Shown here piece after piece: positions 40,158 through 51,918 of a stretch of DNA of 64,000 nucleotides (within the stretch, counting starts at the first letter, position 1; each line of letters starts with the position of its first letter). A program made the position numbers and the translations under genes. The stretch is from a virus. Where the stretch lies: positions 105,967 through 169,966 of IMG/VR virus record IMGVR_UViG_3300047089_000244. One strand, 5' to 3'. The notes below the pieces were generated by a model that was not told the origin of the DNA, made no database searches, and worked only from the letters and a program-made list of their open reading frames with translations.

Positions 40158-40229
40158 AGCCTACACTCAGAATCGAACTGAGTTCTCTAGTTTACAAGAC
40201 TAGCGCGTCACCACTTACGCTTTGCAGGC
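40158..40229 (-). tRNA. tRNA-Thr (TGT)
   Basis: Full cloverleaf. Confidence 0.9.
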
Positions 40230-40235
40230 ACATCA

Positions 40236-40579
40236 TGTAGTCGATAAGCCGGATTCTGTCGTTGGACGATCATCCTTCTCAGTGGCGTGCCGACTAGGCC
40301 CAACGACCCTTTGGCGCTTGAGCTAACCCGAGGTCTCACACGATTCCACTGGTCCCCATGTTACCGGGGACTGCTCCCACCAGCTAATGCCATAGGCAGA
40401 GCCCTTAGGCTTCGACACTTGGGATTGCATCTCTCGGCTTCGTATGCGGTCATAGCGGCCTAAGCCTCCCGCCATCCACGTCACCTATCCAGCACCCCTT
40501 GTGAGGGATCTGAGTTTCCCCAGACGAGATGTCCGGACTTTCCTCGGAGGGATCGGACCTCCGCGATCGTCTGACTACA
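40236..40579 (-). ncRNA. rnpB: RNase P RNA (divergent)
   Basis: CR-I GAGGAAAGUCCGG (40545-40533), CR-V ACAGAAUCCGGCUUAU (40259-40244), P1 UGUAGUC/GACUACA, P2 GACGAUC/GAUCGUC, P3 GGAGG/CCUCC, P5-like CAUCUC/GAGAUG-CAA. Confidence 0.92.
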
Positions 40580-40679
40580 GGATCATGATGGGATTCGAAC
40601 CCACACCTGGGCACTCGCCTCTGCCAATTGATCCACTTACAGAGTTCCGTACGCTTCTGCAAGCAGGCCCTACATGATC
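40580..40679 (-). ncRNA. tRNA-like RNA with acceptor and T arms only
   Basis: GATCATG/CATGATC and GTGGG-TTCGAAT-CCCAT; no canonical D or anticodon arm. Confidence 0.6.
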
Positions 40680-41634: not shown

Positions 41635-42189
41635 CTATGAGCTTCCACGATGCCATCTCATTGTAAGTCCAGGCACCGAAGAAATGCAAGCTCGCCAGTA
41701 ACCACCCACAAAGGCCGTTCGTTTCCGATGGCAGTTCGAACAGAGCACATCGCACTTGGCAATCTCAGTTTCTATCGTTGGCACATCGTAACCTGATGCA
41801 GTCATGTCAGACACCGCAGCAACCTTCTGACTGGGGTCGCGATGATCAAAGTCAAGCACAACCGGATCAGACTCGCCACAATTGATACAGGGATGCTTTT
41901 GAAGGTAGTCCCAAATCCATGCTTGCGCGCGCTCCTGAACAATCCTTTTGCGAGCTTTCGTCCTTGCTTTGATACGATCCTTGTTCCGTAAATAGTGCGC
42001 GTCTGAAACGATCTTCTGACATGCTTTACAGTGAGCTTGATGTTTGTCGCCTTTGGTAGCAAACTCTTTGAGTGGCTTCTCAAGTTCGCATTTACCGCAG
42101 ATCTTAGTCCCCCCGGCTGGAATCGAACCAGCGACGGTCGTGGATTCGAAGTCCACCGCTCTGTCCTCTGAGCTACGAAGGGTTGTCAT
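41635..42189 (-). CDS. HNH endonuclease whose 5' end contains a tRNA gene in frame
   Basis: KICGKC...CKAC, CINCG...LDFDH...CDVLCSNCHRKRT; no in-frame start between tRNA and first CxxC. Confidence 0.75.
   Translation of the reverse strand: MTTLRSSEDRAVDFESTTVAGSIPAGGTKICGKCELEKPLKEFATKGDKHQAHCKACQKIVSDAHYLRNKDRIKARTKARKRIVQERAQAWIWDYLQKHPCINCGESDPVVLDFDHRDPSQKVAAVSDMTASGYDVPTIETEIAKCDVLCSNCHRKRTAFVGGYWRACISSVPGLTMRWHRGSS
42108..42182 (-). tRNA. tRNA-Arg (TCG)
   Basis: Full cloverleaf, 75 nt. Confidence 0.88.
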
Positions 42190-42218
42190 ACCTATTATCA
42201 TCGCGTATTGACTTCGAA

Positions 42219-42401
42219 TCAGGCATGAGGTTCGAAGTCCCACCAACGTCGCATAGTTTCAAGAGCGACCTCGGCAATATCTCGATATTCGTCACGGACC
42301 TCTTCGTGCGCTTCGAGCCAAGGTATAGCTCGCGCAGAAAAGTCTTTCTCCTCAGCCTCATAAATGGCTTGAGCTACTCGCTCTATCAATTTCGTCTCCA
42401 T
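42219..42401 (-). CDS. Small hypothetical protein
   Basis: IERVAQAIYE...W......RDEYRDIA..AL pattern typical of small phage proteins. Confidence 0.6.
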   Translation of the reverse strand: METKLIERVAQAIYEAEEKDFSARAIPWLEAHEEVRDEYRDIAEVALETMRRWWDFEPHA

Positions 42402-42442
42402 TTAGATTCGAAGTCTCAGGTCCTCATCCGTAGGACAGGGGA
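42402..42442 (-). pseudogene. tRNA-Arg(TCG) 5' half remnant
   Basis: TCCCCTG, D-like GTCC..GGAC, loop CTTCGAA; no T arm. Confidence 0.45.
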
Positions 42443-51171: not shown

Positions 51172-51918
51172 TCAGGCACCATGTTCCTTTCCCTTGTCGT
51201 CATTCTTGATCGTGGTCTTGAAGAGTGAGTTGCTGTGCTTGTGGTAGGTTACGATCCCCTCCGGGTCCATGAACCCAGGTGCCGCCGATGATCCACGCAC
51301 CTTGAGGGTCGAGAGGACGCCCTTGATGGCGGCCGTATCGAACTCCTCTAGTTCCGCGAGCACTGGTACAACGTGGCAGCAGTCTGGGCGACGAGTCCCG
51401 TTGTCGTTGTACTCGCCGTTCCATCGCGCCGTGTTGAAGAGGCTGAATCGCTTCTCCTCCAATCCGTATTTGCGCTGGATACCTGCGCCCCACCACTCGC
51501 CGAAGTGAACGCCGACTCCAAGGCCCATCGCCAGTTCGCGTGCGTGCTCGCGTACCCATTTGGCGAAGCCGAAGTTGTCCTGTTCCGGAGAGAGGACCTG
51601 CTTGCGCGACTGCGCGTAAACGAAGACTGGCTCCCAGCCATCCAGCTTGTGGCCGTCCGTGTTGATCACGATGCCCGGACCAACGACCTCCTCATCGCCG
51701 TAGTTGTAGGGAACCATGTCGCTCACCACGACAGCGGCGTTGGTACCATCGATCTTCTCGGTGATGACGACCGGGCGGAAGAGCCTCCCGATCTTCGGGA
51801 AGGGAGTGAAGTCTGCCTGTGGAATGAATGCGTCCTCCGGTATACGTACCTGCGCGTTGAGATCCATGTCCTCAAGACCCATCCCACTCAACCTCCATGT
51901 ATCCGTTCTCATTGCCAC
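51172..51918 (-). CDS. RNA ligase (Rnl2-like adenylyltransferase domain)
   Basis: Motif I EKIDGTN, QSR, GEWWG, F, EGIV, FK; true start may be downstream. Confidence 0.85.
   Translation of the reverse strand: MAMRTDTWRLSGMGLEDMDLNAQVRIPEDAFIPQADFTPFPKIGRLFRPVVITEKIDGTNAAVVVSDMVPYNYGDEEVVGPGIVINTDGHKLDGWEPVFVYAQSRKQVLSPEQDNFGFAKWVREHARELAMGLGVGVHFGEWWGAGIQRKYGLEEKRFSLFNTARWNGEYNDNGTRRPDCCHVVPVLAELEEFDTAAIKGVLSTLKVRGSSAAPGFMDPEGIVTYHKHSNSLFKTTIKNDDKGKEHGA

Follow-up and report, generated by a model that had tools for sequence, protein, structure and literature searches.

We found that an HNH endonuclease gene in the tRNA array of a soil phage carries a complete tRNA-Arg(TCG) gene between its start codon and the body of the nuclease, and that the two halves of a displaced resident tRNA-Arg(TCG) gene flank this arrangement. 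Comparison with related phages indicates that a cassette made up of a putative promoter, a replacement tRNA and the HNH gene interrupts the resident tRNA-Arg(TCG) gene. The best explanation, to which we assign a probability of roughly 0.7, is this anatomy combined with ribosome read-through of the tRNA, such that a given transcript would give rise to either the tRNA or the nuclease. A preliminary description of the same DNA had recognized the nested tRNA and missed the mobile cassette that replaces the resident tRNA gene.

The window, by which we mean the whole stretch of 64,000 nucleotides analysed here, corresponds to the final 64 kb of a virus record 170 kb long, and about 38 tRNAs together with a tmRNA form a minus-strand array within it (ARAGORN). 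Pth2 and an RNA ligase (51172-51918) are also encoded in the window, while a search for a sigma-70 region 2 or WhiB gene as a clue to the host found none. The features of the HNH locus are collected in the table below.

Features of the HNH locus and of a candidate processing gene (positions in the window)
Feature	Position	Strand	Basis
HNH endonuclease gene, 184 aa, start ATG at 42189	41635..42189	(-)	PHROG 2255, E 1e-37; conserved Cys/His/Asn; dN far below dS
-10-like promoter element (GATAAT + 4 nt) directly 5' of the ATG; putative leaderless start	42190..42199	(-)	motif statistics
7-nt segment, pre-tRNA 5' leader and first codons (ATG ACA A)	42183..42189	(-)	allele comparison
In-frame replacement tRNA-Arg(TCG), 75 nt including discriminator, 7-nt variable loop, no encoded CCA	42108..42182	(-)	ARAGORN; Rfam 58 bits
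Possible alternative start, a GTG within the tRNA that follows AGAGGA; 2 of 4 alleles (window, L023)	42154..42156	(-)	allele comparison
N-terminal zinc finger (C31, C34, C54, C57), directly 3' of the tRNA	42019..42099	(-)	conservation, model, dN/dS
HNH core (C101, C104, D115-H116, C150, N152, C153, H154)	41728..41889	(-)	profile match, conserved residues
5' remnant (acceptor strand to anticodon loop) of displaced resident tRNA-Arg(TCG)	42405..42441	(-)	allele comparison
3' remnant (T arm, acceptor strand) of displaced resident tRNA-Arg(TCG), behind the HNH stop codon	41607..41631	(-)	allele comparison
60-aa ORF, secondary insertion between 5' remnant and cassette, flanked by a 9-nt direct repeat; absent from L024 and L025	42219..42401	(-)	
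Conserved inverted repeat (anticodon-loop remnant and invariant 12-mer at 42223-42212); left end of cassette	42210..42239	(-)	
RNase P RNA-like gene of the phage, which might make the 5' cut	40229..40582	(-)	E 2e-15; 57 bits against a gathering score of 100

The PHROG 2255 profile covers residues 27-167 of the protein (E 1e-37), that is, the zinc finger and the HNH core, whereas a Pfam search gave no HNH match. Across a 59-sequence comparison H116 is invariant and D115, N152, H154 and the cysteines are nearly so, and all of them are present in the window protein. In the predicted structure residues 1-27 are coil with a pLDDT of about 62, followed by a confidently modelled zinc finger, a long helix and the HNH core; matches of this model to HNH folds are weak (Hpy99I, Z 5.7 with 39 aligned residues; Gme HNH 4h9d, Z 4.0 with 59 aligned), and we found no solved structure related to the protein by sequence. 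If translated, the tRNA-coded residues are predicted to form a disordered 25-residue N-terminal extension. Since most single-domain relatives start 2-5 residues ahead of the first CxxC, this segment would be a tolerated tail.

Three close relatives, L023, L024 and L025, carry HNH bodies 65-70% identical to one another and to that of the window, giving four alleles in total. Among these the zinc finger has a dN of 0.11-0.17 with dS ranging from 1.2 to saturated, and the HNH gene a dN of 0.11-0.23 with dS above 1 in nearly all pairwise comparisons; none of the four diverged copies contains a stop or a frameshift, and the catalytic and zinc-binding residues are intact. By these rates the zinc finger is under purifying selection, which argues that it is translated and that translation must therefore begin upstream of it. 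All four alleles come from assemblies and share one origin, with L025 cut at a contig end, and we found no further HNH-bearing allele in viral contigs (DNA patterns, which gave two false matches), profile scans, cultured phages or genome contigs. One DNA sequencing run agreed with the window almost to the letter, but it is probably the sample from which the window derives and hence no independent allele.

The tRNA-Arg(TCG) begins at the second base of codon 3, its first nucleotide lying 7 nt past the A of the start codon, and covers codons 3-28. As the preliminary description had stated, it is complete at 75 nt, lies in frame without a stop on what proved to be the minus strand, and yields MTTKICGKC upon its deletion. 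It was equally borne out that no ATG, GTG or TTG separates the zinc finger from the end of the tRNA; the first to follow is codon 111, and codon 30 is ATC. The genome has no intact Arg(TCG) gene other than the nested tRNA. Its stems covary across the four sequences, with 8 of 21 pairs compensated and 97.6% of cells paired, a level reached by 0 of 500 shuffles, and judged by comparison of the alleles it is under selection as a tRNA.

The stop-free passage through the tRNA had itself been offered as support for translation, and here we depart from the preliminary description. Stop-free frames make up 50 of the 111 tRNA frames in the window (45%), and the same frame through tRNA-Arg(TCG) is open in all nine distinct alleles that lack the HNH gene; because the frame is just as open where no nuclease follows, the open frame alone is what chance would give. 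The frames of the two other HNH genes in the window are indeed open through an upstream tRNA-Gly and tRNA-Ser, as had been noted, but they lend no support, since each has its own ATG downstream of its tRNA (41297 and 45845) with a -10-like motif, and we rejected both as parallel nested cases. It is where the ATG sits in the homologs, and the context in which it is found, that goes beyond chance.

In all four alleles a tRNA-Arg(TCG) occupies the same place and is fused in frame to the same first nuclease residues, and the distance from the conserved TAATAGGT to the tRNA is 7 nt throughout. Within those 7 nt the start codon shifts with the length of the tRNA: the ATG lies at -7 in the window and at -4 in L023, both with a 75-nt tRNA, at -4 in L024 with a 72-nt tRNA, and at -6 in L025 with a 73-nt tRNA, and in every case it is in frame with the nuclease. 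Whether homologs keep the frame through the tRNA had been proposed as a check, and all four do so even across these changes in length (75/75/72/73 nt). By comparison, an in-frame ATG is found within 12 nt of the tRNA in 0 of 9 alleles without the nuclease and would occur in 3.4% of random 7-mers; the resulting contrast (4 of 4 against 0 of 9, Fisher p 0.0014) is overstated, since the four alleles share one origin. Of the 434 distinct tRNAs in the loci compared, no others have both a -10-like motif and an ATG upstream together with a frame that runs more than 100 codons past the tRNA. The three nested tRNA types are 65-75% identical to one another, and because the tRNAs of L024 and L025 are nearest to tRNAs of empty alleles (L063, 72%, and L050, 78%, respectively), exchange of the nested tRNA is suggested.

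The context of the ATG points to a promoter. A TAAT motif lies 4 nt ahead of the ATG in the window, an arrangement present at 20 of the phage's 171 genes versus 3 of 585 internal ATGs (p 2e-9), and a looser form of the motif precedes 21 of 29 other nuclease-like frames in the phage family versus 7.8% of all ATGs. Across the four alleles the spacing from the -10-like motif to the ATG is 4 to 7 nt. Together, motif and ATG would constitute a promoter with a leaderless start. No ribosome-binding site was found at a usable spacing before the leader ATG; an AGGT was considered and rejected for this role, its distance to the ATG being an inconsistent 0, 3, 3 and 1 nt. The leader ATG is the only start common to all four homologs, and immediately 5' of the leader the frame of L025 is blocked by stop codons.

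Translation could instead begin inside or just after the tRNA, either at the GTG behind the D-loop purines or at codon 30 with the G-rich acceptor strand as ribosome-binding site, which would make the leader ATG incidental. The preliminary description had presented this GTG as the sole alternative start; it is real (codon 12, 7 nt behind AGAGGA, in the window and L023), but an in-frame ATG at 42201 and a TTG/GTG at 42246/42243 also lie upstream of the leader, neither conserved. L024 likewise offers an in-frame ATG in the tRNA D loop and L025 a GTG two codons past the tRNA, and gene callers on L023 picked the internal GTG. None of these internal starts is shared by the four alleles, however, codon 30 reading ATC, GTC or GTT outside L025, and the sites within the tRNA would be buried in its fold and still be lost by 3' processing. 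Internal initiation would also leave the shift of the leader ATG with tRNA length unexplained, and we regard it as unlikely. That the HNH gene is an untranslated relic whose start has been lost would fit the lack of a start between tRNA and zinc finger and of a usable ribosome-binding site before the ATG, but is very improbable given a dN far below dS, intact residues and uninterrupted frames in four diverged copies. Least credible is a role of the tRNA as an intron, excised with ligation of its flanks to leave a short natural N-terminus: three alleles would then begin with MTTKIC or MTKVC, and the phage encodes the RNA ligase mentioned above, yet removal of the 73-nt tRNA in L025 would shift the reading frame. 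Excision-ligation was rejected on this ground, since any one way of cutting fails for at least one of the four alleles, whereas read-through suits them all.

Related phages without the nuclease, which we found via a neighbouring gene for a 201-aa protein, have an uninterrupted Arg gene in the order Lys-Arg(TCG)-Gly, and presence at the locus is patchy, with four alleles that carry the HNH gene and nine distinct ones that do not. In the HNH-bearing alleles a 5' remnant of the resident tRNA lies upstream, and in the window and L023 a 3' remnant follows the stop codon, the acceptor strands of the two remnants still pairing at 7 of 7 positions. The junctions are imprecise and have been interrupted again by small ORFs, which marks the resident gene as a split relic and not an intron; consistent with this, an Rfam search matched no intron family, and the nuclease counts as free-standing, inside neither a self-splicing intron nor an intein. 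Two further observations concern the flanks of the cassette. The 3' remnant is identical at 24 of 25 positions between the window and L023 (5480-5504 in the latter) although synonymous sites of the HNH gene are saturated, and it may have a function as a processing signal or binding site. The inverted repeat at 42239-42210, with 9 bp, sits just 5' of the promoter in all four alleles and is, by analogy with that of I-TevI, a candidate operator for autorepression.

We propose that a free-standing HNH homing-endonuclease cassette entered a resident tRNA-Arg(TCG) gene and resupplied the tRNA that it destroyed; homing by the cassette is probable. A single promoter would drive both tRNA and nuclease, with transcription beginning at or just 5' of the ATG, so that the first 4-7 nt would serve as both pre-tRNA leader and leaderless start. 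A ribosome loading at the leader ATG would read the tRNA as a floppy N-terminal tail of 25 residues and continue into the nuclease, a passage to which the covariation of the start codon with the frame points. If the transcript folded first, it would be cut 5' of the tRNA by RNase P and also 3' of it, the 5' cut stripping the ATG and the 3' cut releasing a nuclease body without a start codon. An initiating ribosome must cover the 5' acceptor strand and the D arm, and RNase P requires a folded tRNA, so initiation and processing would exclude each other; and because one cut would remove the ATG while the other freed the body, each transcript would yield either tRNA or nuclease. Nuclease output would probably be low. 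The preliminary description had held that maturation of the tRNA destroys the nuclease mRNA, making output inversely dependent on RNase P. The mutual exclusion is favored by the shared upstream ATG, its leaderless context and selection on the tRNA, but RNase P would be one of two cuts, as 3' cleavage would also separate the nuclease body from every upstream start.

The same anatomy could have been shaped by selection for the exclusion itself, with tRNA maturation, possibly through the phage RNase P RNA, acting as a brake that caps a toxic nuclease, and we consider this possible, though the less probable view. Elsewhere in the family, nuclease genes located behind a tRNA readily have a promoter and an ATG of their own, and these four stayed nested while their synonymous sites saturated; the phage family encodes an RNase P RNA; and homing endonucleases of T4 are restrained in many ways, cleavage of segB during tRNA-Arg maturation having been proposed (PMC2988022, PMC2330249). 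Constraint explains the retention equally well, however, since the tRNA needs a promoter and there is no room for another between tRNA and zinc finger, and one promoter serving two products accounts for the layout just as well. Only tentatively, then, might the nested tRNA be viewed as a selected either-or switch, in which leaderless ribosome loading competes with tRNA folding as the transcript emerges and the nuclease dose is set by maturation, perhaps through the phage-encoded RNase P RNA. Such selection would go beyond the reading we prefer, read-through of a replacement tRNA under a shared promoter.

Several neighbouring elements of the array were observed alongside this locus. The RNase P RNA-like gene shows a P4 signature and blastn matches in at least 10 relatives (L023, L046-L048, L053-L060), and we found no paper on a phage-encoded RNase P RNA in the literature searched. 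Abutting its 5' end is a tRNA-like element (40679-40580, minus strand; Rfam 26.8 bits, below threshold) that is conserved in L058. Another tRNA-like element, at about 42518-42445 on the minus strand and 3' of tRNA-Lys(CTT), has a Lys(TTT)-type anticodon arm, an odd D arm and a short T loop; it was missed by ARAGORN, and related elements occur in L046, L050, L053, L062 and L063. Default ARAGORN also missed tRNA-Ser(TGA) (45949-45863) and a 95-nt tRNA (48838-48744), both on the minus strand; a lowered threshold or Rfam recovers them. A 130-nt non-coding element 5' of tRNA-Gly(GCC) (41535-41405, minus strand) is 80-89% identical in L023, L047, L053, L058 and L060 and has no Rfam match. The tmRNA (47079-46733, minus strand) specifies an unusually long tag peptide of 27 residues, a length class conserved across the family. 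The 201-aa protein (43450-42845, minus strand), which contains two HH(F)VPRW/HR-type His motifs and has no Pfam, PHROG or NCBIfam match, marks the family's tRNA array and has 152 relatives. Finally, many nuclease ORFs of the family (HNH, PD-(D/E)XK_5) end inside the next tRNA gene, as seen in L047, L050, L053, L054 and L055, a 3' counterpart of the overlap described here.

The nearest precedent is selC (tRNA-Sec), also a complete sense-strand tRNA gene kept in frame with the surrounding ORF. It is nested at the 3' end of selB in Alphaproteobacteria, mostly with a length that is a multiple of 3, and repression of the protein by tRNA processing has been proposed (Mukai 2021, PMC8124441). In that case the tRNA extends a housekeeping factor at its C-terminus, whereas here it lies between the start codon and the body of a selfish phage nuclease, processing would remove initiation itself, and the start codon shifts with tRNA length. 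Free-standing nucleases of the T4 SegB and T5 F-TflI type similarly reside in phage tRNA arrays and are absent in related phages (PMC2330249, PMC2988022). SegB cuts tRNA genes, and cleavage as tRNA-Arg matures has been proposed to impair its mRNA (PMC2330249). SegB, however, is a GIY-YIG enzyme encoded between tRNA genes, and the proposed cleavage would fall at its last codon; in the present case an HNH gene with its own putative promoter has an entire tRNA at its 5' end and splits the resident tRNA gene. In the archaeal suicidal integrases of SSV1 and pTN3, part of a mobile element's enzyme likewise comes from translation of tRNA-derived sequence, and the element's promoter can drive the tRNA once it is restored (PMC8371274), but the integrase gene holds a partial tRNA serving as att site in a tyrosine recombinase, as opposed to a complete tRNA in an HNH nuclease with no recombinase.

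HNH genes are common in the tRNA arrays of actinobacterial phages and plasmids (PMC5966550). The PHROG 2255 relatives Finemlucis 109, Lewan 109 and Specks 159, at about 40-45% identity, also lie directly behind a tRNA gene, yet the cultured relatives checked have their own ATG or GTG after the tRNA, unlike the window gene. A tblastn match in Finemlucis that ran over tRNA-Pro proved to be an alignment extension, the gene having its own ATG after a stop, and JonJames, Lewan, Specks and Felixounavirus were rejected as nested cases likewise. We found no report of a whole tRNA between the start codon and the body of a nuclease in the literature searched, which left out most subscription papers.

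Bacterial ORF-nested tRNAs have so far rested on one bioinformatic case, selB-selC, and we found no test of its regulatory idea. The present cassette is a compact natural test object, comprising about 600 bases, four variants, one putative promoter and two products that would be mutually exclusive. It could show whether ribosomes initiate on a pre-tRNA leader of 4-7 nt and unfold the tRNA, and whether tRNA processing sets protein dose. Genes of this kind are truncated by the annotation rule against overlap of tRNAs and coding sequences. For the phages that carry it, the cassette illustrates how a selfish nuclease can seize an essential-type gene by bringing its replacement.
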